A stretch of 64,000 nt of DNA from Candidatus Rokuibacteriota bacterium (GTDB lineage Bacteria; Methylomirabilota; Methylomirabilia; Rokubacteriales; CSP1-6), in NCBI GenBank assembly GCA_003220685.1, contig QHTE01000062.1:5624-69623 (forward strand). The letters run 5' to 3'. The position numbers and the translations under genes were made by a program. The notes beneath the pieces are model-generated. The model saw nothing but the letters and a program-made list of their open reading frames with translations. It ran no database searches and was not told the DNA's origin. Shown here piece by piece: positions 26,429 to 53,494 of the stretch. The first letter of the stretch is position 1; the number at the start of each line of letters is the position of its first letter.

Positions 26429-27373
<945 letters not shown>

Positions 27374-27502
27374 TTAGCCATGAGTGCTCTTCTCCCCGCG
27401 CGGCGTTCCGAGGCGAGCCGGCCTGAATCCGGTGTGCCCTCGATTGCGGCCCATCTCGTCGATTTCAATAACGCATTACTCTAACGCGCCGCGCCGACAG
27501 GG

Positions 27503-29010: not shown

Positions 29011-29037
29011 CGTCGGCGTTATACTACCGCCACTTCC

Positions 29038-29421
29038 ATGTCGTCGCGTCACGACCGGCTCGAGCTCCTCGATCGCTATCTCCGCATCCCCTCGATCAGT
29101 CGCCAGGTCACGCCGGAGATGATCGAAGCCGTGCGCGACCTCTGGCATGGGCTCGGCCTCGAGCTCACGCCGCTGGCGCCCGAGGACGGCCGCGGTACGC
29201 CCGCTCTCTACGGCGAGCTGCCGGGGCCCGCAGGCGCGCCGACACTGCTGCTCTACGGCCACTACGACGTCCAGCCCACCGGCGACCCCGCGCGCTGGAA
29301 GTGGCAGGGCGTACCGTGCGAGCCGTTCGTGCCGGCGTACTTCCTCGAGCACTACGTGCTGCGGCACTTCTATCGCCAGAGCGCGCTCTACGCCGCGATC
29401 GTGTCGTCGCGGCCGATGTAG
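29038..29421 (+). pseudogene. N-terminal fragment of an M20-family (ArgE/DapE/dipeptidase) peptidase
   Basis: LLDRYLRIPSIS...PTLLLYGHYDVQPTGDPARWKW...EPF matches only the M20 N-terminus. Similarity is lost after about aa 100, and the ORF stops at 127 aa where about 450 aa is expected. Confidence 0.6.
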
Positions 29422-29422
29422 C

Positions 29423-29740
29423 TCAGTACCACCGCCACGCCCAGACCGCCACCAAGACCACCAGCGCGAGCGCCAGCGCGAGCGCGAAGAGGGCGCGGTG
29501 CCAGCGGTACGCGAGGCCGAAGTCGAGCAGGATCGCGCGCACGCCGAGCAGCGCGTGGACGAGCGCCAGCGCCAGGAGCGCCGCCTGCACCCCGCGTCGG
29601 AACGGGTTCACCAGATGCAGGACGATCACGAGCAGGAGCGCCACGGCCGCGGCGCGCTGGATGAGCCACGCCCACATGCCGGCCTTCGTGTCCCGCCAGC
29701 CCTCGGCGGTGCTCCATTCGCGCTTGAGAACGCGACTCAC
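29423..29740 (-). CDS. small 3-TM SdhD-like hydrophobic anchor subunit
   Basis: GTG start preceded by GAGGG. 105 aa. GMWAWLIQRAAAVALLLVIVLHL resembles the SdhC/D helix-1 signature. His residues lie in TM1 and TM2. Confidence 0.6.
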   Translation of the reverse strand: MSRVLKREWSTAEGWRDTKAGMWAWLIQRAAAVALLLVIVLHLVNPFRRGVQAALLALALVHALLGVRAILLDFGLAYRWHRALFALALALALVVLVAVWAWRWY

Positions 29741-29751
29741 GGCCCTCGCCG

Positions 29752-30129
29752 CTAGAGCTGGCCCTTGCGATAGGAGCGCTTCGCCGCGATCTTTCCGTTG
29801 TGCAGGGTGAGAAGGTCGCAGCCCTGCACCTCGAAGCGCGTGGAGCCCCGCGGCGTCCCGGTCGTCAGCCACTCGACGACCGCCAGCTCGGGACGGGCGA
29901 AGTGGCGGATCTCGTCCCAGCGGATGTCGGGAACGCGCTGGAACATCTCCTCGAGGAACTCGCGGACCGCCGGCTTGCCGACCACTCGGGAACCCCAGGG
30001 ATCCTTGCCGAACGACGCCTCGAAGATGACGTCGTCGGTCATCATCGCGAGGATCCCGTCCACGTCGTGTCCGTTCCACACCGTGTTGAATCGATCCACG
30101 AACGCTTCACCGTCGAACGCCATCGCCAT
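29752..30129 (-). CDS. SnoaL/NTF2-like fold protein
   Basis: 125 aa. FVDRFNTVWNGHDVDGILAMMTDDVIFE is typical of SnoaL-like/ketosteroid-isomerase-like proteins. Confidence 0.65.
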   Translation of the reverse strand: MAMAFDGEAFVDRFNTVWNGHDVDGILAMMTDDVIFEASFGKDPWGSRVVGKPAVREFLEEMFQRVPDIRWDEIRHFARPELAVVEWLTTGTPRGSTRFEVQGCDLLTLHNGKIAAKRSYRKGQL

Positions 30130-30159
30130 GGCCTCCTTCCCCTTGTTCAGAAGCGCGCC

Positions 30160-31896
30160 TCAGTCGCCGACTTCGACCATCGACGAAACCCGCCCTGCCC
30201 CGGCCGGTGTCGCGCGCGTCAGGGCGACCGGCTCGGTCCACACCGCGGCCTCGCCCGCGCGCGCCTGGACCCTCACGATATAGAGCGGCGCGGTCGACGG
30301 GGCAGGAAAATCGTTCCGGTAGTGCGCGCCGCGGCTCTCGGTGCGCGCCAGCGCGCTGGCCGCGATCAGGCGCGCGATGGCGGCCTGGTTGGTCAGGTTG
30401 ATCCAGTCCTGCCACGCCAGATTGAACGCCCCGCCGCCCGGAACGCCGACCCGCGAGAGCTCGTTGGCGATTCGCTCGGCCGTGACGACGGCGGTCTTCA
30501 GCCCGGCCCCGTCGCGCACCAGCCCGGCGCGCTCCCACATCACCTCGCGCAGCTCGCGCTGCAAACCGTAGAGATCGCCACCCCGCCGGGCGAGCGGCGT
30601 CGTGAGCCACTCGACGACGTCGTCCACCTGCGCCCCGCCGTCCCGCGCCGGCGCGCGCCCCACGACGAAATCGGCCATCACGTCGCCGGCGATGCCGCCG
30701 AACACCGTCGACTCGGCGACGCCGTTGCCGCCCAGGCGGTTCGCGCCGTGGACGCCGCCCGTGTCCTCGCCGGCCGCGAAGAGGCCCTCGATGGCCGTGC
30801 GGCATGCGGCGTCGACGACGACGCCGCCCATCATGAAGTGGGTGGTCGGTCCCACCTCGACCGGCCCACGCGCCAGATCCCGGCCGAAGTCTCGGCAGCG
30901 CCGTACCATCCCGCGGAAGCTCCGCTCGACGACCTCGGCGCCCAGATGCGAGACGTCGATCCACACGCCGCCGTTCGGCGTGCCGCGCCCTTCCGTCACC
31001 TCGAGGAACGAGGCGCGCGCGACGAGATCGCGGGTCGAGCGCTCCATCCGCGCCGGATCGTAGCGCTCCATGTAGCGCTCGCCGCGCCCGTTCCGGAGAT
31101 GGCCGCCGGCGCCGCGCAGCCCTTCTTCGAGCAGCGCCCCCGTGATCAGCGAATCGGGGATCACGAGGCCCGTCGGATGGAACTGGATCATCTCCATGTC
31201 GCGGAGCGGGAGCCCGGCGCGATATCCGAGCGCGATGCCGTCGGCGGCCTTGTCGGCCGAGCACGCGACCACCTTGTACATGGTCGGCCCCCCGCCCATC
31301 GCCAGCAGGGTCGCGCGCGCGGTCGCGACGACGAAGCGTCCGGTCCGGAGGTCCAGGACGAGCGCGCCGCGGCAACGCCCCGCGGGGTCCAGCAGGAGCT
31401 CGACCGCCCGGCACTCTTCGAGCGCGCGTACGTTCGGACGCCTGAGCACCTGCTCCGAGAGACGATTCATGATCTCGATGCCGGTGAGGTCGCCCTTGTG
31501 GATCGTCCGATCGTGCGTCTGGCCGGCGAAGGGCTTCTGATGGATCCGTCCCTCGGGCGTGCGGTCGAAGAGGCAGCCGTAGCGCGATTCGAGCTCGAGC
31601 ACTCGCCCGGGCGCCTCCACGACCAGCGTCCACACGAGCTCCTGGTCGTTGATCCAGCCGCCGCCCGCGAGCGTGTCGAGGAAGTGCGCGTCGAGCGAGT
31701 CGGGCGCCGTCAGCACGGCGTTGTAGCCGCCCTGCACCATGCGCGTGCAGCCCGCGCGCCCCAGCAATCCCTTGACGACGACCGTGACGGACAGGCTCGG
31801 CGATCGGTCGGCGGCGTGGAGCGCGGCGCAGAGCCCAGCGCCCCCGGCGCCGAGGATCAGGACGTCCGTTTCGACCGCGTCGACTACCGGACGCAA
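30160..31896 (-). CDS. SdhA/FrdA/NadB-type FAD flavoprotein (paralog 2) lacking the flavinylation histidine
   Basis: 578 aa. Has DVLILGAGGAGL, FHPTG and ESRGAHYRNDFP motifs. At the SdhA His position it reads RAGCTRMVQGG, so Cys replaces His. Confidence 0.85.
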   Translation of the reverse strand: MRPVVDAVETDVLILGAGGAGLCAALHAADRSPSLSVTVVVKGLLGRAGCTRMVQGGYNAVLTAPDSLDAHFLDTLAGGGWINDQELVWTLVVEAPGRVLELESRYGCLFDRTPEGRIHQKPFAGQTHDRTIHKGDLTGIEIMNRLSEQVLRRPNVRALEECRAVELLLDPAGRCRGALVLDLRTGRFVVATARATLLAMGGGPTMYKVVACSADKAADGIALGYRAGLPLRDMEMIQFHPTGLVIPDSLITGALLEEGLRGAGGHLRNGRGERYMERYDPARMERSTRDLVARASFLEVTEGRGTPNGGVWIDVSHLGAEVVERSFRGMVRRCRDFGRDLARGPVEVGPTTHFMMGGVVVDAACRTAIEGLFAAGEDTGGVHGANRLGGNGVAESTVFGGIAGDVMADFVVGRAPARDGGAQVDDVVEWLTTPLARRGGDLYGLQRELREVMWERAGLVRDGAGLKTAVVTAERIANELSRVGVPGGGAFNLAWQDWINLTNQAAIARLIAASALARTESRGAHYRNDFPAPSTAPLYIVRVQARAGEAAVWTEPVALTRATPAGAGRVSSMVEVGD

Positions 31897-31920
31897 GGGC
31901 AGGTCACGACAGCCATCATA

Positions 31921-32604
31921 CTAGTTGCTTCGAGCGACCTCACCCTTGGCGAGACGCTCGAGGAACAGGACGAGATCGCGCGCCATCGCCTGGAACGACT
32001 CCTCCACGTACGACTCCGCGGTCTGGAACCCCGAGTTCGGCGCCTCGCGGCGATCGGCGGTGACGGCCAAGACCTGGCCCGTCTGGGCATCCACCAGGCT
32101 CGTCTCAATCTGCGCCTTCATGCGGTCCCCGAGCCGACTGTAGCCGGAGAACGGCACCCACGCCGAGGTATCGTCGCCGGCCGCGAGACGCGTGATCCGT
32201 CCCTCGAGTCGCAGGAGGCCCCCGCCGTTCGGCGCCGGGTCTCCCTCCTTCACGAGGTCGACGCGGGCGAACGCGTTCGTGGCCCTGAGACGCTGGACGA
32301 TCTGGAGCTGGAAGTACGGAGGGATCGAGACCGTCAGCTTGGCTTCTTCCTTGCTCATCACGCCCGAGTCCGTCACCGGAAAGACGAGGATCGCGAGCGC
32401 GGGATACTTCTTCACGTCGAATCCAGACCGGACGGTCACCAGCCCGGCGCTGGGATCGGGCTGAGTCGGCTTGAGATCGGCGGTCCCCACGGGGTTCACG
32501 GGTGCCTGCTGGGCGGCGCCGAGGGTGCTACAGCCGGCACATACCGCCGACAGCGCAACCACGACGAGAGCCCATCGCCACCAAGTTTGCCTTGCCATGA
32601 GCAT
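31921..32604 (-). CDS. hypothetical lipoprotein
   Basis: 227 aa with the lipobox LSAVCAGC. Lies 24 nt upstream of the paralog-2 flavoprotein on the same strand. Confidence 0.6.
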   Translation of the reverse strand: MLMARQTWWRWALVVVALSAVCAGCSTLGAAQQAPVNPVGTADLKPTQPDPSAGLVTVRSGFDVKKYPALAILVFPVTDSGVMSKEEAKLTVSIPPYFQLQIVQRLRATNAFARVDLVKEGDPAPNGGGLLRLEGRITRLAAGDDTSAWVPFSGYSRLGDRMKAQIETSLVDAQTGQVLAVTADRREAPNSGFQTAESYVEESFQAMARDLVLFLERLAKGEVARSN

Positions 32605-32710
32605 TCCTCCCCTCAGAATGGTTCCTTAGGTGTTCGCGTCGGCTCTTGTCCCGCTGACGATACGCGTATCACAATGGAGGCAAATTCGACAAAGACCGAT
32701 CTGGAGGGTC

Positions 32711-39011: not shown

Positions 39012-39926
39012 GTGGAAATCCCGCAGCTCGAGGCATTCCTGGCCGTCGGCACGTTCGGCGGCTTCCGCCGGGCCGCCGCGGCGCTGCGGCTCACGCAGCC
39101 GGCGGTCAGTGCGCGCATCCGCGCGCTCGAGGATTCGCTGAGCGTGCGTCTGTTCGAGCGCGGACAGCACGGGCTGGCCCTCTCGGCGGCCGGCCGCGCG
39201 CTCCGGCCTCACGCCGAGCAGGTTTTGCAGGCGGCCGCGCTCGCCCGCCAGGCGGTGCACGACGTCCGCCCGGCCAGCGGGGGGGCGCTCCAGATCGCCG
39301 CGGTGCTCTCCATCTGCACCTACCTCCTGCCCGACGTGCTCAAGCGGTTCCAGACGGCTCACCCGAGCGTGATGATCACGGTGCGCTCGGGCCACTCGAA
39401 GGAGGTGCTCGAGCTGGTGCTGCGCGGCGAGGCGGAGATTGGACTCGCGCGGTCGCTGCACCATCCCGAGGTCGAGACGGTGAGCCTCCGCAACGATCCT
39501 CTCGTGCTGGTGGGCCGCGCGGCATCGTGGCCCACGAGCACCCGACGGGCGCGGCTCGCGCAGATCGCCGACCGGCCGCTGATCTTCTTCGACCGCGGCT
39601 CGAGCGACTGGACCTTGACGCAGGGGCTCTTCCGCCGGGCCGGGCTCGTGCCCAACGTGGCGCTCGAGGTCGAGACGATCGAGACGGCCAAGCGCATGGT
39701 CGAGCGCGGGATGGGACTCGCCTTCCTGCCGCACCTGGCGGTCGGACGCGAGCTGCGCCGGCGCAGCCTGGTGGCGATCGAGATCGTGGACGCCGAGCCG
39801 ATCGCCCGCAGCCTCGACGTGATCCACCCGCGGCCTCGGCCGCTCTCCGCGGCCGCGCGCGCCTTGCTGCAGGCGTTGAGGTCGGCGCTCAGCGAGGCCG
39901 ACGGGCCTCCGCGCCGGCGGCGCTAG
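39012..39926 (+). CDS. LysR family transcriptional regulator
   Basis: 304 aa with a GTG start. N-terminal HTH is QLEAFLAVGTFGGFRRAAAALRLTQPAVSARIRALE. Confidence 0.9.
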   Translation: MEIPQLEAFLAVGTFGGFRRAAAALRLTQPAVSARIRALEDSLSVRLFERGQHGLALSAAGRALRPHAEQVLQAAALARQAVHDVRPASGGALQIAAVLSICTYLLPDVLKRFQTAHPSVMITVRSGHSKEVLELVLRGEAEIGLARSLHHPEVETVSLRNDPLVLVGRAASWPTSTRRARLAQIADRPLIFFDRGSSDWTLTQGLFRRAGLVPNVALEVETIETAKRMVERGMGLAFLPHLAVGRELRRRSLVAIEIVDAEPIARSLDVIHPRPRPLSAAARALLQALRSALSEADGPPRRRR

Positions 39927-40448
39927 CTAGCTCCGGCGAGCCAGCAGCCGGCGCAGCAGGGTCCTGCCCTGCTCACCCGCCCACTGACGCTCGCCGATCG
40001 CCTTGCCGACCAGCCTGCCCTGGCGGTCGACGAGGAAGACGCTCGGCGTGTAGGCGATCTGGTAGCTCTTCTCCGCTTCCTTGTTCGCGTCGAGCAGCAC
40101 CGTCGACGTCACGCCCCGGCTCTTCACGAACGCCGCGACCACGTCGCGTTTCTCGGCGAGGTTGATCGCCAGCACCACGAGCCCCTGATCGCGGAGCTCC
40201 TGGTGGACTCGCTCGATGGTCGAGGGCAACTCCCTCGCGCAGTACGGTCAGGTGCTCTCCCAGAAATAGAGCATGACGGCCCGGCCGAGCGCGTCGGCGA
40301 GCGCGACGGGCTTGCCGTCGAGCGACTCGAGGAAGAACGGCGCCGGCGTCTGGTCGCCGAGCGGCGTGACCTGGAACGCCGAGAGCAGCTCGTCGAGCGA
40401 ATCGTCCGCCGCGGCAGCCGGCAGCAGCCCGAGCCCGAGCAGCAGCAC
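39927..40448 (-). CDS. periplasmic TlpA/ResA/SoxS-like thioredoxin-fold redoxin with in-frame UGA (predicted selenocysteine, U-P-Y-C)
   Basis: ORFs 40248..40448 and 39927..40229 are in the same frame, separated only by TGA at 40250-40248. Read-through gives ...VMLYFWEST-U-PYCARELPSTIERVHQELRDQGLVVLAINL.... Confidence 0.65.
40221..40237 (-). promoter_or_regulatory. candidate bacterial SECIS hairpin
   Basis: The mRNA forms CGAGGG-AGUUG-CCCUCG (6-bp stem, 5-nt loop containing G and U), starting 8 nt after the UGA. Confidence 0.45.
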
Positions 40449-40464
40449 CGCCGCCAGCGCGAGC

Positions 40465-40914
40465 CTACGGCTTGATGTACGCGTAGCCCGCCTCCTGGAG
40501 CTCCATGACCCGCACGACGCCGCTCGGCACCGGCGTCGCGCCCTCGATCAGGTCCTTGAGGTCGATCTTCTGCCGCGCCATCGTGATCTGGCAGGCGTCG
40601 AGCCTGAGCCCGCCGGCCAGCAGGGTCTCGAGCTTGCCGCGCACGTCGGGATCGATGTCCCTGGCGAGAAACGTGCGCAGCGCCGGGCCGTGAACGACGA
40701 GCTCGAGCGCCTCGATGTTCTTCCAGCCGACGACGTGGACGTGATTGTCGATGTTGACGAGCACGGCCTTGGCGCGGTCAACGCCGGGATCGTCCAGGTG
40801 ATAGACAACCTTGTGCCGCTTCGGCTGCGCGGCCAGGTGCGACGCGTCGGTCGCGCTCGACCACGCGAGCGCTCCGACGGCGACCATCGCGACGAACCAG
40901 AGACTCGTTCGCAT
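40465..40914 (-). CDS. secreted DsrE-related (COG1416-like) sulfur-relay family protein
   Basis: 149 aa with a signal peptide. Has HKVVYHLDD, LRLDACQITM and the C-terminal LQEAGYAYIKP. Confidence 0.7.
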   Translation of the reverse strand: MRTSLWFVAMVAVGALAWSSATDASHLAAQPKRHKVVYHLDDPGVDRAKAVLVNIDNHVHVVGWKNIEALELVVHGPALRTFLARDIDPDVRGKLETLLAGGLRLDACQITMARQKIDLKDLIEGATPVPSGVVRVMELQEAGYAYIKP

Positions 40915-40916
40915 CG

Positions 40917-42614
40917 TCAATCTCCTTTGCGTCCCACGACCCGCACGCGCGCGCGCGGCGCGAGCTTCACGCGCCCGAGGCTCTTGAGGTGACCGGCCAC
41001 CACGTCCCACGCCGGGGGGCCGTCGACCTCGGCGAGGCTCGCCCAGCCCGTCGCCTTGTAGCGGCGGGCGGGCTCCATGGCGCGTCCGGCCACGCGGAGG
41101 TCTCGGATGCGCCGGCCGACGGGCTTGGACGGGTCGATCGTATACGTCAGCCCGCCCAGCCGCACCATGTCGCCGCCCTGCCGATAGTACGGATCGGGAT
41201 GGAATAGGTTGTCGGCGACGTCTTCCATCAGCTGGTGGATCTCGCTCCCCGTCATCTCCCGCACCCAGGTGTTCGGATAGGTCACGGCGGTGTGCGCGTA
41301 CGCGTCCTCGGGCGTGATCTCCTGCCCCGGCACGATCGTGATCCCCCAGCGGAAGCCCGGGGAGAACGCGATCTGGGCGTCGGCGTCGCGCAGGAGCGCG
41401 TCGAGGATCAGCTCGTCGAACGTGCCGTTGAAGTTGCCGCGCCGGTAGAGCAAGGTCTCGGACACCGCCAGCCGCTCGCCCAGCTTCGCCTCGTAGGGCC
41501 GGCGAATCTCCTCGATCAGCCGGGCCATGTCCGGATCGGCAGGGACGTCCTGCGCCAGGACGGGGATCAGGCGATAGCGATAGCCGCGGAGGCGTCCGCG
41601 CTGGACGTCCAGGTCGAGGCGGCTCAGGAACTTGCCGTGCGAGCCCGAGTTCACGACCAGCGTCTTGCCCACGAGGAGTGGCTGCGGCAGCGCGTCGTGG
41701 GTGTGGCCGCCGAGCACGACGTCGAGGCCGTGGACGCGCCCGGCGAGCTTCAGGTCGACCGCAACGCCGTTGTGCGAGAGCAGGACGACCAGATCGACCT
41801 TCTTGCCTTCTCGCAGCTCGTTGACCAGCGCCTGAAGGCCGTCTTCCTGGATGCCGAACGTCAGGTCGGGCACGAAGCGCCGGGGATGGGAGACCGGCGT
41901 GTACGGGAACGCCTGGCCGATGACTCCCACGCGCGCGCCGCCCACGTCGCGGATCGTGTAGGGCCGAAACGGCCGCTCGGCCCAGTTGAGCTCGGCGACG
42001 TTGTGCGCCACGAAGTCGCCCGCGAAGACGCCCCGCTGCTCGCGATCGCCGAAGAGCTCCTTGACGCGGTCGAGCCCGTACACGAACTCCCAGTGCGGCG
42101 TGAAGACCTCGACGCCGAGCTGGTTCGAGACGCGCACCATGTCCTCGCCGCGGCTCCAGAGGGCGGTGGCCGAGCCCTGGATCGTGTCGCCGCCGTCGAG
42201 CAGGAGCGTGCGCCCCGCGCGCTCCTCGCGGACCCGCTTGACCAGGGTGGCGAGATGGGCGTAGCCGCCCATGCGTCCGTATCGCGCGGCCAAGGTCGCG
42301 AAGTCGAGATACGTGTAGGCGTACGCCTCCACGGTGCCCGGCGAGAGATGGTACGCGCGGAGCAGCTCGGCGCCCGTGAGAAACGGCGGCCGGCCGCGCT
42401 CGGCGCCGACGCCGATGACCGAGTCGGGCTCGCGATAGTACACGGGGCGAAGCGTCGCGTGCGCGTCGGTGATGTGCAGTAGGGTCACGTTGCCCAGCGG
42501 CTCGAAGGCCAGGAGCCGCGCGGGGCCGTCGGCGGCCTCGAGACTGCGCGGCGCGAGCCCGGCGCCCGCGGCGACCGCGAGCAGCCTTAGGAGGTCGCGC
42601 CGCGAGACGTCCAT
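40917..42614 (-). CDS. soxB: thiosulfohydrolase SoxB
   Basis: 565 aa. Tat signal SRRDLLRLLAVAAG. Has metallophosphoesterase/5'-nucleotidase motifs (HITDAHA, DGGDTIQGS). Confidence 0.9.
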   Translation of the reverse strand: MDVSRRDLLRLLAVAAGAGLAPRSLEAADGPARLLAFEPLGNVTLLHITDAHATLRPVYYREPDSVIGVGAERGRPPFLTGAELLRAYHLSPGTVEAYAYTYLDFATLAARYGRMGGYAHLATLVKRVREERAGRTLLLDGGDTIQGSATALWSRGEDMVRVSNQLGVEVFTPHWEFVYGLDRVKELFGDREQRGVFAGDFVAHNVAELNWAERPFRPYTIRDVGGARVGVIGQAFPYTPVSHPRRFVPDLTFGIQEDGLQALVNELREGKKVDLVVLLSHNGVAVDLKLAGRVHGLDVVLGGHTHDALPQPLLVGKTLVVNSGSHGKFLSRLDLDVQRGRLRGYRYRLIPVLAQDVPADPDMARLIEEIRRPYEAKLGERLAVSETLLYRRGNFNGTFDELILDALLRDADAQIAFSPGFRWGITIVPGQEITPEDAYAHTAVTYPNTWVREMTGSEIHQLMEDVADNLFHPDPYYRQGGDMVRLGGLTYTIDPSKPVGRRIRDLRVAGRAMEPARRYKATGWASLAEVDGPPAWDVVAGHLKSLGRVKLAPRARVRVVGRKGD

Positions 42615-42617: not shown

Positions 42618-43928
42618 CTAGTGGCGAATGCCCGGCACGCTGAGCGGTTTGCCGTTGTCGAAGGCGGTCAGGTAGAGCTCGAGCTCTGCGTACTCGATGG
42701 AATCCGCCGCGAGCATGTTCATCCCGAGGGGCGTCATGCACCACTGGAAGCGCTTGCGCATGTCCCACACCTCCGCCCGGTCGGTCCGCCACGTCGGGAT
42801 GTGCTTCGTCAAGCCCGACCTCACGTCCGCCAGCAAGCGGCCGCCCAGAAACTTCCCGGCTGACCGCTCGCTCGTGTGGCAATCGGCGCACGCGTGATTG
42901 CGCTCACCCACCCGCCGGTAAAAGGTCGCCTTGCCGCGCGCGAGCGCGGCGCGGGCTTCGGGGCTCGCGACGTCGACGCTCACCGGCATGCCGTTCGACT
43001 GCATCTTGATGAGCATGGTCATGCTGAGATTGTCGGCCGACTCGCTCGGCATCGCGTGGCCGGTCGTAGCGGGCGCGTGCACCTCGAGAAAGTCCTCGAC
43101 GCCCATCACGCGCCCCTGGGCCTTCACGAACCTCGGGTATCGTGGCGCGACGCCGCGCATCGCGCGCGCGACGCCGCCCTCGTGGCAATCGCTACAGGCC
43201 TTGCCGGACGCTCCGCGCGCCGTCCACAGTGCCTCGGCGTCCTCGGCCAGCACGATCGCGGGGTTGTTCGTCGGATCGAGGTTGTCGCCGAACCCCACGG
43301 GCTTCGGACGTGTGAAGGGATTGCGCTCCGGGCTCTTCTCCGGAGCGACCGGCGCCTTGAGCGTCTGGAGGTAGGCGACGATGTGCACGATCTCCTCGGC
43401 GCTGAAGATCCCGGCGGTGCCCCACGGCGGCATCACGGTGTTCGGGAAGAACACGCGCGGGTCCCAGACGACCTGATACAGATACTGATCGGGCAGCCGG
43501 CGATCGCCGATCGTCGACTGATCGGGGCCGGCGCTGCCGGCCGGCCAGACGTCGTCGCCCGGCACGAGATGACACGCCGTGCAGGGCCCCTTGCTACGGC
43601 TGAGAAAGAGCGCACGCCCTTTGTGGGCGTCGCCTTCAATGCTGGCGGGCATCGTCACGCGTTCCACCGGGGGCTCCCGCCGTGAGTCGTCGTACCCGTA
43701 CGTCGGGTACGGAGCGAAATCCCTCGTTGTCCATCCGCGATAGCGCACGGCCGCGCGCGTGCCGTCGGTCAGGGTGCGGATCTCGCCGCGCGCTTCGGGG
43801 AGCGCACGCGACGACCACCGCGGAACGCTGCCGTAGTCGGGCGCCTCCGCCGCTGTCCCCGCGCAGCCGGCGCTCAGCGCCACGAACGCCGCCCCACGCA
43901 GCGCCCGCCACGCCGCCGCGCGTCTCAT
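42618..43928 (-). CDS. SoxX-SoxA fusion cytochrome c (three CxxCH), lipoprotein signal
   Basis: 436 aa with the lipobox LSAGC. CTACH lies in the SoxX-like half. CSDCH and CADCH plus RFQWCM lie in the SoxA-like half. Confidence 0.8.
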   Translation of the reverse strand: MRRAAAWRALRGAAFVALSAGCAGTAAEAPDYGSVPRWSSRALPEARGEIRTLTDGTRAAVRYRGWTTRDFAPYPTYGYDDSRREPPVERVTMPASIEGDAHKGRALFLSRSKGPCTACHLVPGDDVWPAGSAGPDQSTIGDRRLPDQYLYQVVWDPRVFFPNTVMPPWGTAGIFSAEEIVHIVAYLQTLKAPVAPEKSPERNPFTRPKPVGFGDNLDPTNNPAIVLAEDAEALWTARGASGKACSDCHEGGVARAMRGVAPRYPRFVKAQGRVMGVEDFLEVHAPATTGHAMPSESADNLSMTMLIKMQSNGMPVSVDVASPEARAALARGKATFYRRVGERNHACADCHTSERSAGKFLGGRLLADVRSGLTKHIPTWRTDRAEVWDMRKRFQWCMTPLGMNMLAADSIEYAELELYLTAFDNGKPLSVPGIRH

Positions 43929-43938: not shown

Positions 43939-44271
43939 TCACGAGAACTTGATGTCCGCGATGCCCTCGTAGCGCCCCCCGGTGGTGTCGAGGAACTGAA
44001 CCTTGAGCTGACCCGGGTCGGTCGCCTTGAAGGTGAAGGTGAAAAACGGATTCTCGGCCACGTTCTGAGTCGTGTCGAAGGTCGCGACGGTCTTGCCCAG
44101 ATACGTCACGATCACCTTGTTGATGTAGTTGTAGTTCTTCTGAACGATCTTGCCCTGCGCATCACGCTCGATCCGCTCCATCGGGTGGATCACGAGGGCA
44201 CGTACCTGGACGACGTCGCCGGCCTTGATGCTCGACGGAACGCGGAGCCGAACCTTGCCGATGTCTGACAT
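43939..44271 (-). CDS. soxZ: sulfur carrier complex subunit SoxZ
   Basis: 110 aa. MSDIGKVRLRVPSSIKAGDVVQVRALVIHPME is typical of SoxZ. Confidence 0.85.
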   Translation of the reverse strand: MSDIGKVRLRVPSSIKAGDVVQVRALVIHPMERIERDAQGKIVQKNYNYINKVIVTYLGKTVATFDTTQNVAENPFFTFTFKATDPGQLKVQFLDTTGGRYEGIADIKFS

Positions 44272-44273: not shown

Positions 44274-44765
44274 CTAGCCTCCGCAGCCGCCGACCGTGAC
44301 TTTGACCTCGCGCTTGACGGCGAGCAGGCTGCCGTCGCTCTGCTCGACGATGGCGCGGACGTCGCCGCTCTCGCCGAGGCGGATGTTCGCACCCATGAAC
44401 GCGCGGCCGGCCTCCGGCGACAACGTCACTCGCGTGACGACCGGGATGCGGTTCTTGTCGGCGACGACGTAGATATGCTTCACGTAGTTCGTCGGCGTCA
44501 TCGGAGAATCGACGCTGACCGAGATCGGGACCACGGCGCCGTTTTCGGCGATGAGCGGCACGTCCAGCTTGACGCTGGCGGCGCCGTCCCTCATCGGCTT
44601 GCCTCCGAAGAGCCGCTTCATCGCATCTTCCACGCTCTCGTTCTGCCCGAGCGCCTGAGCCCACGCCGTGCCCGGCATCGCGGCGAGTCCCCCTGCCGCG
44701 GCAACGCCGAGGGCACTCAAGGTGATCAGAGCTGTTCGCCGGCTTATCCGATGGTCCTCGGTCAC
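44274..44765 (-). CDS. soxY: sulfur carrier complex subunit SoxY
   Basis: GTG start after AGGAGGGG. Tat motif SRRTALITL. C-terminal swinging-arm motif VTVGGCGG. Confidence 0.9.
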   Translation of the reverse strand: MTEDHRISRRTALITLSALGVAAAGGLAAMPGTAWAQALGQNESVEDAMKRLFGGKPMRDGAASVKLDVPLIAENGAVVPISVSVDSPMTPTNYVKHIYVVADKNRIPVVTRVTLSPEAGRAFMGANIRLGESGDVRAIVEQSDGSLLAVKREVKVTVGGCGG

Positions 44766-44900
44766 GATCGCCCCTCCTCCCGCGTCCCGCGCGCCAGCAG
44801 GCTCGCCCATCCGTGTTCCTCCGATGGCTCAGCCACTTGACAACCGCCCACATGCCGACCCAGAGTGCGTCTGCGCCGCCGACAATCCCAGGGAGACACT

Positions 44901-46223
44901 ATGCGCCCGAAGCACGTTCCCGGACAACTCCTCACTCTCGTCGCCTTGCTCATGCTCGGCTGTGCCGTTGGCGCGGACAAGCGCGAGGTGCCGTCCTCCC
45001 AGCGGTGGACCTCTCGCGCGATCCCCGAGGCTCGGGGCGAGGTCAAGGAGATCGAAGGGAAACGGGTGCAGATCCGCTACCGGCATGAACCCTTCTCGAC
45101 CTTCACCGTGAACTACGAGCAGTGGCCCACCTATGCCTACAGCGACAACCGGGTCTTTTCCCAGCCGGCGCGAGTCGCCATGCCTGACCTCAAGGGAGAT
45201 CCGGCACGTGGCCGGCAGCTGTTCATGGCCCGAAACAAGGCGCCGTGCACGGGCTGCCACCTGATTCCGGGAGACGACGTCTGGCCGGCTGGAAGCGTCG
45301 GCCCGGATCTGTCAGTCATCGGCGACCGCCGTTTGCCGGATCGATATCTCTTCGAGCTCATCTGGGATCCCCGTCTGTTCTTTCCCAACACCAGCATGCC
45401 CCCCTGGGGACCAGCCGGAATTCTCTCCGCGGAAGAAGTCGTCCACATCGTGGCCTTCCTCCAAACGCTCAAAGGCAACCCGCCGTTCGTGCCGCCGCCG
45501 GAGAAGGACCCCACGCGGAATCCGCACACGCGTCCGACGATCCTTCCTTACTACGGCGACAATCTGGATCCAGCCACGAACCCCGCCGTCGTCTTCGCGG
45601 ACAATGCCCTGTCCGTGTGGTCCGCGAAGGGACCGGCGGGCAAGGCCTGCGCGGACTGTCATCCGGGCGGCCCGGAGAAGGCCATGAAAGGCGTGGCGAC
45701 GAAGTACCCGAAGTATCTCTCGGCGTACCGGCGGATCATGTCGATCGGAGACTTGCTGACCGTCCATACGCCCGAGACGACGGGCCGAGAGATGCTCGCC
45801 GAGAGCGCCGACAATCTCAACATGACCATGCTCATCAAGATGCAGTCGAATGGAATGCCCGTGAACGTCGACATCACGAGCCCAGAGGCCGCCGCCGCGT
45901 ACGAGCGCGGGCGGGCCGTGTATTTCAAACGGGTCGGCCAGCGTAACCACGCCTGCGCCGACTGCCACGAGGCGGATCGAGGCGCCGGCCGATACGCCGG
46001 CGCCCGGCTGCTCAGTCCCGTCCGCGAGGGGCTGACCAAGCACTTCCCGCTCTGGTTCAACGCGTATCTCGGCGTCTGGGACATTCGCAAACGCTTCCAG
46101 GTGTGCATGCTGCCGCTCGGAATGAACTACCTGCCCGCCGACGCGCCGGAGTATGCGGACCTCGAGCTCTACCTCACCGCGTTCGACAACGGCAAGCCGA
46201 TGAGCGTGCCGGGAATCCGGTGA
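44901..46223 (+). CDS. second SoxX-SoxA fusion cytochrome c (paralog), lipoprotein signal
   Basis: 440 aa from the ATG after GGGAGA. Lipobox LMLGC. Has CTGCH, CADCH, CADCH and RFQVCM. Roughly 60% identical by eye to 42618..43928. Confidence 0.8.
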   Translation: MRPKHVPGQLLTLVALLMLGCAVGADKREVPSSQRWTSRAIPEARGEVKEIEGKRVQIRYRHEPFSTFTVNYEQWPTYAYSDNRVFSQPARVAMPDLKGDPARGRQLFMARNKAPCTGCHLIPGDDVWPAGSVGPDLSVIGDRRLPDRYLFELIWDPRLFFPNTSMPPWGPAGILSAEEVVHIVAFLQTLKGNPPFVPPPEKDPTRNPHTRPTILPYYGDNLDPATNPAVVFADNALSVWSAKGPAGKACADCHPGGPEKAMKGVATKYPKYLSAYRRIMSIGDLLTVHTPETTGREMLAESADNLNMTMLIKMQSNGMPVNVDITSPEAAAAYERGRAVYFKRVGQRNHACADCHEADRGAGRYAGARLLSPVREGLTKHFPLWFNAYLGVWDIRKRFQVCMLPLGMNYLPADAPEYADLELYLTAFDNGKPMSVPGIR

Positions 46224-46425: not shown

Positions 46426-48033
46426 TCACCGCCGCCGCTCGCCCTCCTGGCTTCTCGCAACGACCTGAGCGTACGCTCGCAGATAGTAAACAGCGTCAGG
46501 CGCCCGGGCCACCGCGTCGTCGCCGTCACCCAAGAGAGCGCGCGCCGTCCCACCAAACGATGTCAGAACGCGTCGGGCGAGATCGAGATAGTCGGCCGGA
46601 CCCCCGACCTGGTGCGCCTGGAGCAGCGCCTCGGCCATGACCCCGTTGGCGTCGAGCGACAGCGGGAGGCTCTTGTCGTCGCCGAAGGCGCCCCGGCCGG
46701 CATCGAAGAGGTCGGCCACGGCGAAGCGCAGCACCTGCAGTGCCGTCTGGCGGTAGGATTCCACCCGGACGACTCGATAGCCCTCGAGGAGCCCGAGCGC
46801 GGCCCACGCATTGGCATCGAGCTGCCCCTCGCCATGTCTTTGTCCGGTCCGAGGCTCGTAGAGATGGAAGGCGCCTTTCTCGCTCACCACGTTCAGGCGT
46901 ATGAAGTCGAGCGTGCGCAGCGCAACATCGCGAAGATCCGTTCTCCCCGAGGACCGGCCCAGAGCGAGCAGCGCGACGGCCGCTTCGGCGTTCCACGCCG
47001 TGAGCTTCTCGCGATTCACGGATGGCGCCTGAGCGCTCCGCCGTTCGCGAAGCGACAGTCGGTAATAGGCGGGATTGGCGGTCTGGCTGCTATAAAAGCC
47101 GCCCGCGGTCGCGTCGTGGAGTGTTCGGAGCAGGTACGCGACCGTACGATCCGCGGCCTCCCGGTACCGCGGGTTACCGGTCATCCGGTGAGCCTCGCCC
47201 AGCACGGCCGCCAGTGTTGCGTTGAGATGCACCAGCTTCTCGTAATGCGGCTGGCGCCACTCCCGCCCTTCGGCGAAACGAAAGAAGCCGCCATCGACAG
47301 GGTCATAGAGGGCTCCGAGGACCCCGTCGAGAGTCTTCTCGACGGCGACGAGGTAGCGACGATCCCCAGTGGCCTGGTGTAGCTCGAGCAGATACGCGAG
47401 CAGACGCGGCTGAGGGTATTTGTCGCCGGAGCCAAACCCGCCGTACTCCTTGTCCAGGTTCTCGCCGACGAAGGTGAGCATGCCCTGGCGGAGCCGCCGA
47501 TACGTATTCGAGCTCAGTGGGGCCGAGTTCGGAACGGCGACGGGCCCGGTCTCCGGCGCGGGCGACGGCGACGCGGCGACCTGCTTCACGACGCTCAGAA
47601 AATCGTCCTTCTTGAGCACCCCGGCGAACGATTGCCGGACCCGGCCGTCGGGAGCGAAGAGCACGATCATCGGCAGTCCCCGGGCGTACCTGCGCACGAG
47701 GTCAGGGTGCCGGTCATGGTCGGCGAAGACATTCACGTAGTGCTGGTTCAGGTACTTCGACACCTCGGCGTCGGCCAGCACCTGTTGCTCGAAGTATTTG
47801 CACCAGTAGCACCACACGGCGCTGATCAGGAGAAAGAGGGGTTTGCCTTCCCTCTGCGCAGCCTCGAATGCCGCGGGCGAATGCTCCACGAACCGGACGT
47901 TCGACGTCTGGAGGACGTCGCCCCGGGCGTCCCGGGCGCCGCCAGGGAAGACCCCGAGGGCTCCGAGCGCAAGAACGGCGAGGGATCGTCTTGACAAGCT
48001 CTCTCGGCCGACACAGAGTCTGCGAGCATTCAT
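46426..48033 (-). CDS. thioredoxin-domain (DUF255/YyaL-like) protein with Tat-like signal
   Basis: 535 aa from MNARRL. Has SRRSLAVLALG and the N-terminal Trx-like motif AVWCYWCKYFE. The C-terminal part is alpha-helical and repeat-like. Confidence 0.65.
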   Translation of the reverse strand: MNARRLCVGRESLSRRSLAVLALGALGVFPGGARDARGDVLQTSNVRFVEHSPAAFEAAQREGKPLFLLISAVWCYWCKYFEQQVLADAEVSKYLNQHYVNVFADHDRHPDLVRRYARGLPMIVLFAPDGRVRQSFAGVLKKDDFLSVVKQVAASPSPAPETGPVAVPNSAPLSSNTYRRLRQGMLTFVGENLDKEYGGFGSGDKYPQPRLLAYLLELHQATGDRRYLVAVEKTLDGVLGALYDPVDGGFFRFAEGREWRQPHYEKLVHLNATLAAVLGEAHRMTGNPRYREAADRTVAYLLRTLHDATAGGFYSSQTANPAYYRLSLRERRSAQAPSVNREKLTAWNAEAAVALLALGRSSGRTDLRDVALRTLDFIRLNVVSEKGAFHLYEPRTGQRHGEGQLDANAWAALGLLEGYRVVRVESYRQTALQVLRFAVADLFDAGRGAFGDDKSLPLSLDANGVMAEALLQAHQVGGPADYLDLARRVLTSFGGTARALLGDGDDAVARAPDAVYYLRAYAQVVARSQEGERRR

Positions 48034-49101: not shown

Positions 49102-51933
49102 TCAGGCGCCATCCAAACGATAGGCAGACGCGTCGGGCTTGAACGCGCGCGGCAGCCAGAGCGGCCGTCTCAGGTTGTCGGGGCCCGGGGCGGGACGGGC
49201 GAGCGCCAGCCACTCACGGTAGACCTCGAACGATTTGTCGGTGTCGACGAACACGTCGCCGTAGCGGTCGTCCGAGCTGGGCCGCGTCACGGTCACCTTC
49301 TGATGCCAGCAATGCTGGCCGCTGACTGGATCGGGCTGGACCGGGAAGGTCAGGTTCTGGTGCACGCCGGCCTCGTTCCACCAGATCCGCGACGAATCGG
49401 GATCGTCGCTCGCGAACGGCCGCGGCCCGTGCCGCTGGCGCATGCGCCACTTGCCCGCGTCGAGCCGGCTCAAATCGACCAGGGCGGTCGACCACCGCTC
49501 GCCGCCCGCGTCCTCGTGCAGGCGCCACCGGCCCAGGTGGTGCGAGCACGCCACCACACCCGGACGCACGGACTCGGTCACCCACACCCGGTCGACGAAA
49601 TGCCCGATGCGCGTCGCGACCTTCAGGAGGTCACCGGTGGCGACGCCGAGCCGCGTCGCGTCCTCGGGATGGAGCCAGAGCGGGTTCGTGTGGGAGATCT
49701 CGTAGAGCCACTTCGCGTTGCCCGACCGCGTATGGATCAAGGTCGGCAGCCGGAACGTCGGCAGCAGGACCATCTCGCCCTTCGCGCGATCGAGGTTCGA
49801 CCAGTGCACGTGGCTCCGGATGTAGTTCGGCACCGCCTGCTCCGGCCACTTCCAAGCCTTCAAGGTCTTGGAGAAGAACTCGAGCTTGCGCGAGGGCGTG
49901 GGAAAGCCGATGTGGCGACGGCCGTCGATCTCGACACCGACCGCCTGTCCGCCCTTGACGACGACCTGCGTGACCGGATCGACCGTCGCGCCGTCCAGCT
50001 CGCGCGCGGACGGCGCCTGCTCGTGCGTGCGGTAGACGCCGTCCTCGATGAGAAATGCGCCGTACTTCCGCATGTACTCGAGCGGCGTCAGCTTCTCCTT
50101 TGCGGCCGCTTCGGGAAGTCCGGGGACGCTGTTCTCGAAGATCCAGCGATACTGCTCCTCGATCCTGAGCTTCTCGCCCGGGCGATAGGGCGACTCGAAG
50201 TACTTTCGGATGCCGAGCGAGCCGTCCGGATCGATCCGCCAGGAAAGCTCGATCCAGAACTCGTCCTCCTCCCAGACCTGGCCGATGCCGGCCGCCTCGT
50301 GGGCCTGCCAGGTGAGATCGAAGCGCTTGCCCGTCCTCTCGAGCGCGACGCGCAGCACGGGCTGGCGGAAGCCGATCCACCGTGCGGCGTGAGTCTCCTG
50401 CGACATCAGATCGTGGCGCTCGGAGGCGTGGCCCATCGGCAGCACGTAGTCGGCGAACCACGCCGTCTCGCTCCAGATCGGCGTGAGACACGCGTGGCGC
50501 TCCACCTTCGTCTCGTCGGTGAGCGCCTCGATCCACGACATCCCATCGGGATTCGTCCACACCGGGTTGTAGACGCGCGTGAAGTACATCGCGAGCTTGC
50601 CGCGGCCCTCTCTCAGGAAATGCGGGAGCAGGAAGCTCATCTCGAAGAACGCGAGTGGATACTCGCGCGGCATCAGGAGCTCGCTCCAGATCTTGGCGGG
50701 CGGCGGCATCATCGGCGGCGCCGGCACCGCCTTGTTCCAGGCGTTGGGCGCGGTCCCCCCGGGCGTGCCGACGGCGCCCATCAACACCACGAGCAGCTCG
50801 AGCGCGCGCGCCACCTGCCAGCCGCCGAGGTTACCGGCGGCGGTGTTGCGCCAGACGTGGGTCGCCAGCGCCGAGCCGGCGCGGCCGATCTCCCGCGCGA
50901 TCTCGACGATCGTCGACGCCGCGACGCCGCTCTCGGCCTCGGCGAACTCCGGGGTGAATCGCGCGTACAGCTCGTCGAGCGCGCGCTCGAACGAGTCGAA
51001 CGTGACCGGAAGATCCGGCCGCTCCTCGCGCAGGTACTCGTCCCAGTTCACCCAGCGTCGCACGAAGTCACGGTCGTAGAGCTTCTCGCGCACGAGGATG
51101 CGCGCCATCGCCAGGAGCACGGCCGACTCCGACCCGGGCCAGGGCGCCAGCCACCAGTCGGCCATCGACGCCGTGTTGCTGAGCCGCGTGTCGAAGACCG
51201 CGATCTTCGCGCCCCGCGCCTTGGCTTCGATGATCCGCTGGGCGTGCGGATTGAAGTAGTGGCCGGTCTCCAGGTGCGAGGAGAGCAGCAGGATGAAGCG
51301 CGCATTCGCGTGATCGGGCGAGGGGCGATCCATGCCGTGCCAGAAGGCGTAGCCGGCCCGCGCGCTCGCCGAGCAGACGTTCGTGTGGCTGTTGTGGCCG
51401 TCGATGCCCCAGGCGTGGAAGACGCGCTGGAGGTAGACGAGCTCGTGTCCCGGGCGGCCGAGGTGGTACATGACTTCGCGCTGCCGCCCCTCGACCAGCG
51501 CTCGGCGGATGCGCCCGCCGATGTCGTCGAGCGCGTCGTCCCACGTGACGCGCTCCCAGCGCCCTCCCCCGCGCGGCCCGACGCGGCGCAGCGGATAGCG
51601 GATGCGCTCGGGATCGGTCACCTGGTTCAAGGTCGCCGGGCCCTTGGCGCAATTGCGCCCGCGGCTTCCCGGATGCGTCGGGTTGCCCTCGAACTTCTGG
51701 ATCGCGAGCGTCTCCCGGTCGACGTAGGCGAGCAGCCCGCAGCCCGCCTCGCAGTTGAAGCAGATCGTCGGGATCAGCGAGTAGCGGCGCGTGACCTTCC
51801 GCGGCCAGGCGACCGGGTCATACTCTTCCCAGTCGTCCCAGCGCTCGACGGGCGGATAGCTCTTGAGACCGCCCTGGGACGCGGCGAGCTCCCGCGCGAC
51901 CGGATGAAGCGGCGCGGGCCCACGCTCGGTCAT
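49102..51933 (-). CDS. molybdopterin (bis-MGD) oxidoreductase catalytic subunit without Tat signal; SoeA-like candidate
   Basis: 943 aa. FS0 motif CFNCEAGCGLLAYV...CAKG, and HPGSRGRNCAKGPAT. No twin-arginine leader. Confidence 0.85.
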   Translation of the reverse strand: MTERGPAPLHPVARELAASQGGLKSYPPVERWDDWEEYDPVAWPRKVTRRYSLIPTICFNCEAGCGLLAYVDRETLAIQKFEGNPTHPGSRGRNCAKGPATLNQVTDPERIRYPLRRVGPRGGGRWERVTWDDALDDIGGRIRRALVEGRQREVMYHLGRPGHELVYLQRVFHAWGIDGHNSHTNVCSASARAGYAFWHGMDRPSPDHANARFILLLSSHLETGHYFNPHAQRIIEAKARGAKIAVFDTRLSNTASMADWWLAPWPGSESAVLLAMARILVREKLYDRDFVRRWVNWDEYLREERPDLPVTFDSFERALDELYARFTPEFAEAESGVAASTIVEIAREIGRAGSALATHVWRNTAAGNLGGWQVARALELLVVLMGAVGTPGGTAPNAWNKAVPAPPMMPPPAKIWSELLMPREYPLAFFEMSFLLPHFLREGRGKLAMYFTRVYNPVWTNPDGMSWIEALTDETKVERHACLTPIWSETAWFADYVLPMGHASERHDLMSQETHAARWIGFRQPVLRVALERTGKRFDLTWQAHEAAGIGQVWEEDEFWIELSWRIDPDGSLGIRKYFESPYRPGEKLRIEEQYRWIFENSVPGLPEAAAKEKLTPLEYMRKYGAFLIEDGVYRTHEQAPSARELDGATVDPVTQVVVKGGQAVGVEIDGRRHIGFPTPSRKLEFFSKTLKAWKWPEQAVPNYIRSHVHWSNLDRAKGEMVLLPTFRLPTLIHTRSGNAKWLYEISHTNPLWLHPEDATRLGVATGDLLKVATRIGHFVDRVWVTESVRPGVVACSHHLGRWRLHEDAGGERWSTALVDLSRLDAGKWRMRQRHGPRPFASDDPDSSRIWWNEAGVHQNLTFPVQPDPVSGQHCWHQKVTVTRPSSDDRYGDVFVDTDKSFEVYREWLALARPAPGPDNLRRPLWLPRAFKPDASAYRLDGA

Positions 51934-51940
51934 GACAGTC

Positions 51941-53491: not shown

Positions 53492-53494
53492 CGC

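Follow-up and report, generated by a model that had tools for sequence, protein, structure and literature searches.

A redoxin gene interrupted by a TGA at the end of a sox operon

The stretch of DNA analyzed here (the window; 64,000 nucleotides of contig QHTE01000062.1 from Candidatus Rokuibacteriota) carries a sulfur-oxidation (sox) operon whose last gene, on the minus strand, is crossed by a single in-frame TGA. We examined this gene as a candidate selenoprotein, a thioredoxin-fold redoxin with selenocysteine (Sec) in its active site. The sequence-only reading of the window had described two short open reading frames (ORFs), 40248..40448 and 39927..40229, in the same frame and split by one TGA. 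This description holds, and the two ORFs are mechanical halves of a single frame. Between 40475 and 39927 on the minus strand, that frame contains one stop, the TGA at 40250-40248, and is otherwise open; it translates as ...GRAVMLYFWEST*PYCARELPSTIERVHQELRDQGLVVLAINL... and ends at a TAG (39929-39927). Judged from its sequence, the locus is one gene and not two. This last gene of the sox operon very probably encodes a real selenoprotein, and we consider its product likely to be an exported thioredoxin-fold thiol-disulfide oxidoreductase of ~180 amino acids, of the ResA/TlpA/CcmG type, whose attacking residue would be Sec (U-P-Y-C). The features of the gene, including a hairpin resembling a bacterial selenocysteine insertion sequence (bSECIS), are as follows.

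39927..40484, minus strand: predicted redoxin gene of the TlpA/ResA type with Sec, spanning the TGA; its 5' end is the proposed ACG at 40484-40482
40248..40250, minus strand: in-frame TGA, proposed Sec codon, opposite the first Cys of CxxC in alignments
40239..40241, minus strand: TGC for the resolving Cys of the U-P-Y-C center, TGC in 26/26 Sec-form sequences
40221..40237, minus strand: bSECIS-like hairpin CGAGGG-AGUUG-CCCUCG, with a 6-bp stem, a 5-nt loop, G at loop position 2, and 16 nt from UGA to loop
40407..40484, minus strand: N-terminal export signal or anchor, (M)RTSSRR-LALAAVLLLGLGLL-PAAAA, then DD, by sequence inspection
40491..40496, minus strand: perfect AGGAGG, proposed ribosome-binding site of the redoxin gene, lying within the dsrE-like frame, 6 nt before the ACG (40484-40482)

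Conservation of the TGA and its Cys counterparts

We compared the locus across genomes by taking one genome per species, which gave 26 Rokubacteria/Methylomirabilota loci. The codon at the Sec site was TGA in 25 of the 26 and TGT in 1 of the 26. In the set of Sec-form sequences it was TGA in all 26, and the seven Cys forms for which DNA was available had TGT or TGC. The Sec-form proteins ranged from 40% to 94% in identity, and the exact window locus was present in four independent metagenome assemblies. All 26 sequences kept the same frame across the TGA, with conserved residues and synonymous variation on both sides; the synonymous changes upstream included TAT/TAC and GGC/GGG/GGT/GGA.

A protein search recovered ∼10 clusters of full-length Cys forms, 77 to 82% identical and reading FWESTC(R/P)YCARELPSTIE (orthologue motif FWESTCRYCARELPSTIE). 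The same search returned >60 clusters (P0011-P0087) that were C-terminal fragments of 98 to 100 amino acids starting with (M/L)PSTIE, as well as N-terminal fragment proteins ending in ...YFWEST. The artificial start of the C-terminal fragments is the TTG within the hairpin loop. In GenBank and IMG, the Sec forms appear as fragments of 82 to 100 amino acids labeled "hypothetical protein," "peroxiredoxin," or "AhpC/TSA family" (e.g., PYM73436.1).

These annotations, in which gene callers and GenBank/IMG give fragments of 100 or 82 amino acids, would suit a locus without any recoding, whether through pseudogenization, sequencing error, or the presence of two small genes (66 and 100 amino acids), and the nonsignificant fold of the single sequence (see below) would suit it as well. 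Against this, 25 of the 26 species-level genomes, and four assemblies besides, have the TGA at exactly this codon, with purifying selection on both sides of it across the whole range of protein identities; this conservation excludes the pseudogene and sequencing-error readings. Further, a split into two genes would fall at the active site of a thioredoxin fold, and the "100-amino-acid gene" has a single start, the TTG in the hairpin loop. We give the absence of recoding next to no credence. Relatives with the locus in two decaying pieces and without a conserved hairpin had been named at the outset as grounds for abandoning the selenoprotein, and the opposite was found.

Two further observations concern the distribution of the family. 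Loci from genomes labeled Candidatus Binatia (L002 and L010) and Actinobacteria (L008) were 70 to 82% identical to the Rokubacteria locus and had the same sox and LysR neighbors; for these labels, binning contamination seems a more likely explanation than transfer. A distant paralogue clade made up entirely of Cys forms (L045, L047, and the P0061 gene table), at ∼49% identity and with the motif WATWCP(Y/F)CTREMPSTIE, followed an FGE-sulfatase-like gene and had 4HFCP_synth and pterin genes nearby, rather than sox genes. The window itself has an FGE-sulfatase-like ORF at 5091-5906, with no redoxin beside it. The context of P0003 and P0061 was taken from gene tables only.

A bSECIS-like hairpin frozen at synonymous sites

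The sequence-only reading had proposed a compact GC stem with G and U in the loop downstream of the TGA, and the element is present in that form. The spacing had been put at 8 nt and is in fact 10 nt (40247..40238), with the stem running from +11. The stem of the minimal fdhF element of E. coli likewise starts at +11 after the UGA. The window hairpin resembles that element (the minimal 17-nt upper hairpin of the fdhF SECIS) in being a 17-nt hairpin from +11 with GU in its apical loop; it differs in sequence, in having no bulged stem U, and in its 5-nt loop AGUUG, and its recognition by SelB is a prediction. Published bSECIS criteria (PMC13188914) call for a loop of 3 to 9 nt, a stem of 4 to 16 bp, G in the first two loop positions and then U, a UGA-to-loop distance of 16 to 37 nt, and a minimum free energy (MFE) of −7.5 kcal/mol or lower. 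The window hairpin lies within all of these limits (loop AGUUG, 5 nt; stem, 6 bp; distance, 16 nt; MFE, −9.1 kcal/mol). The sequence CGAGGG/AGUUG/CCCUCG has one exact copy in the window.

A fold check that had been suggested for this region gave a divided result: the hairpin alone folded at −9.1 kcal/mol, but the 83-nt region containing it was no better than shuffled sequences (z = −0.15). The hairpin is therefore not significant from the window alone, and its significance comes from comparison with other genomes. Searches of Rfam, with the whole window at the gathering threshold and with 40150-40300 at E ≤ 10, found nothing of relevance, and no bacterial SECIS family was matched.

The 30-nt stretch TGA CCG TAC TGC GCG AGG GAG TTG CCC TCG varied hardly at all among the 26 Sec sequences. 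The codons AGG, GAG, GCG, and CCC each occurred in 26 of 26 sequences, TCG in 25, and TTG in 24, with TTA in the other 2. Mean synonymous-codon entropy was 0.21 for codons +1 to +9, whereas 47 further conserved codons in this gene averaged 0.93. At other conserved positions of the redoxin gene, Arg is encoded by CGN and Leu by CTC or CTG, and in the confident genes of the window AGG makes up 3.4% of Arg codons and TTG 4.6% of Leu codons. The rare codons AGG and TTG are the ones that form the A-U pair of the stem and the UU of the loop.

The MFE of the hairpin was −9.1 kcal/mol in the Sec forms, except for −7.8 kcal/mol in L010 and −8.9 kcal/mol with the loop variant. Among the seven Cys forms, four had lost the hairpin: L004 and L043, which use CGG/CTG (−4.6 kcal/mol), L047 (−2.9 kcal/mol), and L045 (−1.7 kcal/mol). 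A Fisher exact test calculated by hand (26/0 versus 3/4), in which phylogeny is ignored, gave a P value of ∼9e-4.

Family and fold of the product

For profile searches, Cys was put in place of the stop. The product matched the Pfam families AhpC-TSA (8e-21) and Redoxin (8.5e-19), and its NCBIfam matches were ResA (the best), StoA, TlpA, and DsbE, each well under its orthologue cutoff. For ResA, TlpA, and DsbE proper, scores of 81.1 (cutoff, 170), 47.3 (cutoff, 230), and 31.1 (cutoff, 123) do not indicate orthology. The redoxin thus belongs within the ResA/TlpA/CcmG superfamily and is no orthologue of ResA, TlpA, or DsbE. Two NCBIfam models of selenoprotein redoxins also scored it under cutoff, NF041054 (WAxxUGC_long; 39.2 versus 300) and NF053656 (redoxin_TUGYCR; 26 versus 100).

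The top sequence matches in the PDB were variants of Bacillus subtilis ResA (1.3e-20). The sequence-only reading had placed the TGA at the first Cys of a TlpA/ResA-type center, and this was borne out both by ResA, whose Cys74 (the N-terminal active-site Cys) lies opposite the U, and by the full-length Cys orthologues. The retained Cys, which that reading had taken for the resolving one, lies opposite the resolving Cys of ResA and was invariant among the compared sequences. The Glu of U-P-Y-C-A-R-E stands opposite the glutamate of the ResA CxxCxxE motif, and the cis-Pro is conserved. An AlphaFold2 model of a Cys orthologue (P0002; 79% identical) had a predicted local distance difference test score of 92.4, and its Foldseek neighbors were ResA, a Geobacter thioredoxin, CcmG/DsbE-like proteins, TlpA, and StoA, with template modeling scores to the target of 0.8 to 0.92. 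The product thus has a thioredoxin fold with CxxC at the start of helix 1, the CxxCxxE glutamate, and the cis-Pro loop, and we are highly confident that it is an extracytoplasmic oxidoreductase of the ResA/TlpA type.

We also considered a peroxiredoxin, given the AhpC-TSA matches in Pfam. This identity was rejected: the active site is of the redoxin type (W-x-x-x-U-x-x-C) and not PxxxTxxC, and the BCP and PrxQ models scored 22 against a cutoff of 140 and 19 against a cutoff of 260, respectively.

Leader and start of translation

The hydrophobic N-terminal leader that had been proposed is present by inspection of the sequence, in agreement with the P0002 model, in which residues 4 to 35 form a helix outside the fold. 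Orthologues with an ATG start have the same layout of n-, h-, and c-regions. The assignment of a putative signal peptide or membrane anchor was made by such inspection of the window gene and its orthologues.

The first canonical start in the window gene is the GTG at 40448, and starting there would drop the charged n-region; the true start is probably upstream of it. In L042, with soxB immediately before the redoxin gene, translation starts at an ATG (AAGGAGaatgaATG CGT ACA TCA AGC, giving MRTSS), and in L044, with the same arrangement, it is a GTG. In the window, as in nine further loci, the corresponding codon is ACG, lined up with the ATG/GTG of these post-soxB orthologues. Loci from which dsrE has been deleted still retain approximately the last 13 dsrE codons, with AGGAGG...ACG. 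Initiation at the ACG, or coupling to the termination of dsrE, seems the likely arrangement from these alignments. A noncanonical start pattern like that at window positions 40482-40496 was noted in L001, L004, L006, L008, L010, L011, L022, and L043. In L011 and L022, the first canonical start lies well inside the mature part, and none precedes the hydrophobic core of the leader.

The sox operon and its surroundings

The redoxin gene had been described as closing a soxY-soxZ-soxXA-soxB-dsrE-like series, and gene order together with NCBIfam and Pfam assignments agrees with this. SoxB, SoxA, SoxX, and SoxY passed their NCBIfam equivalog cutoffs. The window showed no soxCD.

44274..44810, minus strand: soxY, with the C-terminal carrier motif GGCGG (TIGR04488, 137 versus 125)
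43939..44271, minus strand: soxZ (74 bits versus a cutoff of 76; Pfam SoxZ)
42618..43928, minus strand: soxXA fusion (SoxA, 160 versus 110; SoxX, 71.2 versus 61)
40917..42614, minus strand: soxB (TIGR04486, 782.7 bits versus a cutoff of 550)
40465..40914, minus strand: dsrE-like gene, directly upstream of the redoxin gene; 149 amino acids, its own signal peptide, and a single Cys in LDACQITM
39012..39926, plus strand: LysR-family regulator, convergent, abutting the end of the redoxin gene and a conserved neighbor in many loci
49102-60950, minus strand: larger sulfur island, with a molybdenum (Mo) oxidoreductase, a fused FeS/NrfD subunit, TauE, cytochrome c and flavocytochrome c sulfide dehydrogenase (FCSD), a YeeE-like transporter, a metallo-beta-lactamase (MBL)-rhodanese, and an EF-G paralogue

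In tblastn searches with the window proteins, sox genes lay beside the redoxin gene in ∼20 of the 26 loci. Four or more arrangements were distinguished: immediately behind soxB; behind dsrE; immediately behind soxXA, without soxB; and displaced beyond LysR and a gene of the isocitrate lyase family. The close Cys orthologues occupied the same slot, after soxB. In L018 and L025, which are without sox genes, the redoxin gene lay between an upstream Mo-oxidoreductase and a downstream FAD flavoprotein, and in L025 a fused FeS/NrfD subunit was found upstream of the Mo-oxidoreductase. The same FAD flavoprotein lay downstream in L013, where the sequence ends upstream of the redoxin gene, and in L017 the redoxin gene was downstream of an EF-G paralogue. 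The modules that flank the redoxin gene in L017, L018, and L025 are also present in the sulfur island of the window, and a FAD flavoprotein of this type occurs at window positions 30160-31920. From these neighborhoods, the association of the redoxin is with periplasmic sulfur chemistry generally and with Sox most often. A functional tie between the redoxin and the sulfur-oxidation island is quite probable.

Several other genes of this region deserve mention. A second, SoxXA-like dihaem fusion adjoins soxY divergently (44901-46223, plus strand); it passes the NCBIfam cutoffs for both SoxA and SoxX and was found in several loci. At 46426-47997 (minus strand), a protein of ∼523 amino acids has a DsbH/DsbD-gamma-like thioredoxin domain followed by a weak glycosidase/epimerase-like region, with Pfam scores near or below the cutoffs. 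It is conserved beside the sox cluster, adjoins a gene for an ABC substrate-binding protein, and may interact with the redoxin as its redox partner. Within the sulfur island, the Mo-oxidoreductase (947 amino acids) lacks a twin-arginine leader and is possibly SoeA-like, and the MBL-rhodanese is persulfide dioxygenase-like.

Weighing the selenoprotein interpretation

Taken together, the frozen hairpin and the conserved TGA make genuine decoding of the TGA at 40250-40248 as Sec highly probable in our judgment. For the core claim, that the gene encodes a genuine exported Sec-redoxin serving the sulfur-oxidation module, we estimate a probability of roughly 0.7.

A number of observations weigh against this claim. 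Neither the 64-kb window nor 589 kb of related loci yielded a selA, selB, selD, or tRNA-Sec gene: ARAGORN detected no tRNA-Sec in the window or the 26 loci, tblastn with E. coli SelD and SelA probes gave no match in the window and the 589 kb of loci, and Pfam annotation of most of the window gave no sel genes. The host genome may possess the Sec machinery, on the basis of literature at the level of the phylum. The hairpin, with its rare AGG and TTG codons, is still intact in three of the seven Cys forms (L042, L044, and L046). Compensatory covariation is absent, there being none to count because the stem never varies, and the RNA evidence consists of synonymous-site freezing and of decay in Cys forms. 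There is no ATG, GTG, or TTG upstream of the redoxin leader in the window. Between four and six of the 26 loci had no sox gene in the DNA examined, two of these ending just upstream of the redoxin gene. The closest characterized relatives, ResA and CcmG, act in cytochrome c maturation, and no similarity to SoxS was detectable among the PDB sequence and Foldseek matches. Finally, no electron donor of the CcdA/DsbD/SoxV type was present among the scanned ORFs of the window, the scan having gaps at ∼8.7 to 9.8, 15.9 to 17.0, 27.4 to 28.3, and 48.1 to 49.1 kb.

The two states of the Cys forms look like Sec-to-Cys conversions of different ages, an intact hairpin being in that case a fossil. As for the phylum, a Methylomirabilota metagenome-assembled genome has 63 predicted genes for selenoproteins (Deng et al. 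2026, as summarized in PMC13188914), and Methylomirabilota carry group 4 hydrogenases of the Sec type (PMC13582414). The EF-G-like gene at 58854-60950 has the full EF-G architecture and is therefore not SelB. A scan of the window and the related loci for TGA flanked by coding sequence with high GC content at third positions gave no second in-frame candidate and returned only adjacent genes in the same frame.

Two other meanings of the UGA were considered. Genome-wide reassignment was rejected, as TGA ends 8 of the 15 window genes examined, including soxZ and soxB. In the other, hairpin and SelB would recode the UGA to Cys by means of a tRNA(Cys)-like selC variant, of a kind described in some bacteria (Vargas-Rodriguez et al. 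2018, as cited in PMC13582414). Insertion of Cys would account equally well for the conserved UGA and hairpin and would sit comfortably with the failure to see selA, selD, or tRNA-Sec in the window or related loci. Such systems are rare, however, and Methylomirabilota are reported, in the summary mentioned above, to be rich in selenoproteins; moreover, plain TGT and TGC forms exist in the same clade, with the hairpin lost in four of seven, which fits the abandonment of a costly Sec system better than an alternative spelling of Cys. We regard recoding to Cys as very improbable and retain Sec as the residue at this position in what follows.

Proposed role of the predicted Sec-redoxin

In the mechanism we propose, a ribosome reaching the UGA at 40250-40248 would not terminate; the hairpin from +11 would recruit SelB with Sec-tRNA(Sec), and Sec would be inserted. 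The leader would export the redoxin to the periplasm or anchor it facing the periplasm, where, judging from neighborhood and family, its selenolate/thiol pair would be the reductant for the sulfur-oxidation module. Its most probable task would be to clear the carrier cysteine of SoxY, in the GGCGG arm, of disulfide or persulfide adducts that are dead ends; a possible second target is the lone Cys in the neighboring periplasmic DsrE-like protein. A selenenylsulfide would form and be reduced again by a membrane electron conduit encoded outside the window; the scanned window ORFs included no DsbD/CcdA-type protein, only a soluble DsbH-like thioredoxin-domain protein. We infer SelB-mediated insertion, periplasmic export, and reductant action on the cysteine-bound sulfur of the Sox carrier from sequence features and context. 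A SoxS-like role is our best guess because a redoxin of the reductant type lies beside soxYZ and soxB and no equivalent of SoxS, SoxV, or SoxW is visible. As the specific role, reactivation of SoxY in the manner of SoxS is offered tentatively, at somewhat less than even odds. It is inseparable from the two other roles considered next, maturation and sulfane release, by sequence alone.

The same selenoprotein could instead serve the maturation of cytochrome c or metal centers, reducing the CxxCH cysteines of the two SoxXA fusions and of the island's other periplasmic cytochromes before haem is attached. Its nearest relatives by sequence and fold (ResA, StoA, CcmG/DsbE, and TlpA) would favor such a role, as would the two multihaem SoxXA fusions encoded here and the cytochrome c/FCSD pair nearby. 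However, its ResA, TlpA, and DsbE scores are far under the equivalog cutoffs (81 versus 170, 47 versus 230, and 31 versus 123), ccm and resBC genes are not adjacent, and no cytochrome c was present among the Pfam-scanned neighbors in L018, L025, and L013, where the context is Mo-oxidoreductase and FAD flavoprotein. Moreover, a housekeeping factor would not be expected to track the sulfur island through rearrangements. We consider a maturation role unlikely.

It is also conceivable that the selenoprotein and the DsrE-like carrier form a periplasmic sulfane-sulfur reductase or transferase that strips persulfide or polysulfide sulfane sulfur from SoxY in a system without SoxCD, going beyond the repair of dead-end disulfides. 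The window yielded no soxCD, and a selenolate is the better nucleophile for attack on S-S bonds. A DsrE-like protein with a signal peptide and a single Cys is encoded directly upstream in at least eight loci, and FCSD, the YeeE-like transporter, and the MBL-rhodanese lie in the same island. Many loci have no dsrE, however (L003, L005, L042, and L044), and in sequence terms this role is indistinguishable from the SoxS-like one. We judge it to be just as unlikely as a role in maturation. A bolder version, to which we attach still less weight, is that thiosulfate/sulfur oxidation by the truncated, SoxCD-less Sox pathway of Rokubacteria/Methylomirabilota may be selenium dependent, the Sec-redoxin (with the DsrE-like protein where there is one) providing a dedicated catalytic step, more than repair, that would clear sulfane sulfur or mixed disulfides from the SoxY arm, and the ACG start embedded in the upstream gene throttling expression.

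Comparison with known systems

The predicted redoxin shares with ResA of Bacillus subtilis and TlpA of Bradyrhizobium the fold, the layout F-W-x-x-W/T-[C/U]-x-x-C-x-x-E-x-P, the cis-Pro, and a leader or anchor. Foldseek template modeling scores to these targets were 0.86 to 0.92. It differs from them in having Sec in place of the attacking Cys, in its sequence (∼26% identity), and in its location in a sulfur-oxidation island rather than among genes for cytochrome maturation or Cu-site assembly. With SoxS and SoxW of Paracoccus pantotrophus it has in common a thioredoxin fold, a predicted periplasmic location, and a place in the sox cluster, and a role in maintaining SoxY is proposed by analogy; in work attributed to Orawski (2007) and Carius (2009), Paracoccus SoxS is said to keep SoxY active. 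Unlike SoxS and SoxW, the window protein has Sec, and no SoxV/CcdA partner was found among the scanned window ORFs. No SoxS chain appeared among the PDB sequence matches at E ≤ 1e-3 or the top 50 Foldseek matches, and no direct sequence comparison with SoxS or SoxW was made. The redoxin is classed as ResA/TlpA type and, by these matches, not as a detectable orthologue of SoxS, and its SoxS/SoxW-like role would be one of analogy.

UxxC selenoproteins of this general kind have been catalogued as "Redoxin family protein" (PF08534), "Thiol-disulfide isomerase-like" (cd02966), "Prx-like thiol:disulfide oxidoreductase" (PF00578), and "UGC-containing TlpA" (PMC13188914). The window clade shares with them, including NF041054 and NF053656, a redoxin fold in which Sec takes the first place of CxxC, with a SECIS immediately downstream; it differs in its motif, (S/T)(T/W/G)-U-P-Y-C-A-R-E-L-P-S, and in scoring under both NCBIfam cutoffs. 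The review exemplar HEU0032618.1 is a possible member of the window clade. The sequence-only reading knew of no Sec-containing redoxin acting with Sox. UxxC redoxin selenoproteins are already catalogued, but a Sox-linked member was not found in the literature searched, in which no paper linked a selenoprotein or selenoprotein redoxin to Sox, SoxY, or SoxYZ. Searches on Rokubacteria and sel genes returned nothing pertinent. UxxC thioredoxin-fold selenoproteins are known, and what is new here is a misannotated clade and its sox operon context. The clade appears to be restricted to genomes of the Rokubacteria/Methylomirabilota type and to be tied to sulfur oxidation, and we found no description or correct annotation of it.

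If the interpretation is right, it corrects a systematic misannotation that extends over >60 clusters of fragments of 82 to 100 amino acids. It would also provide a natural experiment in Sec and Cys use, with the SECIS frozen in one state and fossil or decayed in the other, of value for SECIS models and for selenoprotein finders in soil phyla of high GC content. Further, it would connect the use of selenium with Sox sulfur oxidation in bacteria abundant in soil and groundwater and supply a testable candidate for the SoxY-reactivating reductant where SoxS, SoxV, and SoxW are lacking. Knowledge of Sec decoding and of redoxin function would be unchanged by the finding.

Other genes of the window

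Central-carbon genes are densely packed at 14322-32625 on the minus strand. They include genes for biotin carboxylase, the alpha and beta subunits of succinyl-CoA ligase, malate dehydrogenase, and monomeric isocitrate dehydrogenase, together with two flavoprotein/FeS pairs of the succinate dehydrogenase/fumarate reductase type and a split class I fumarase.

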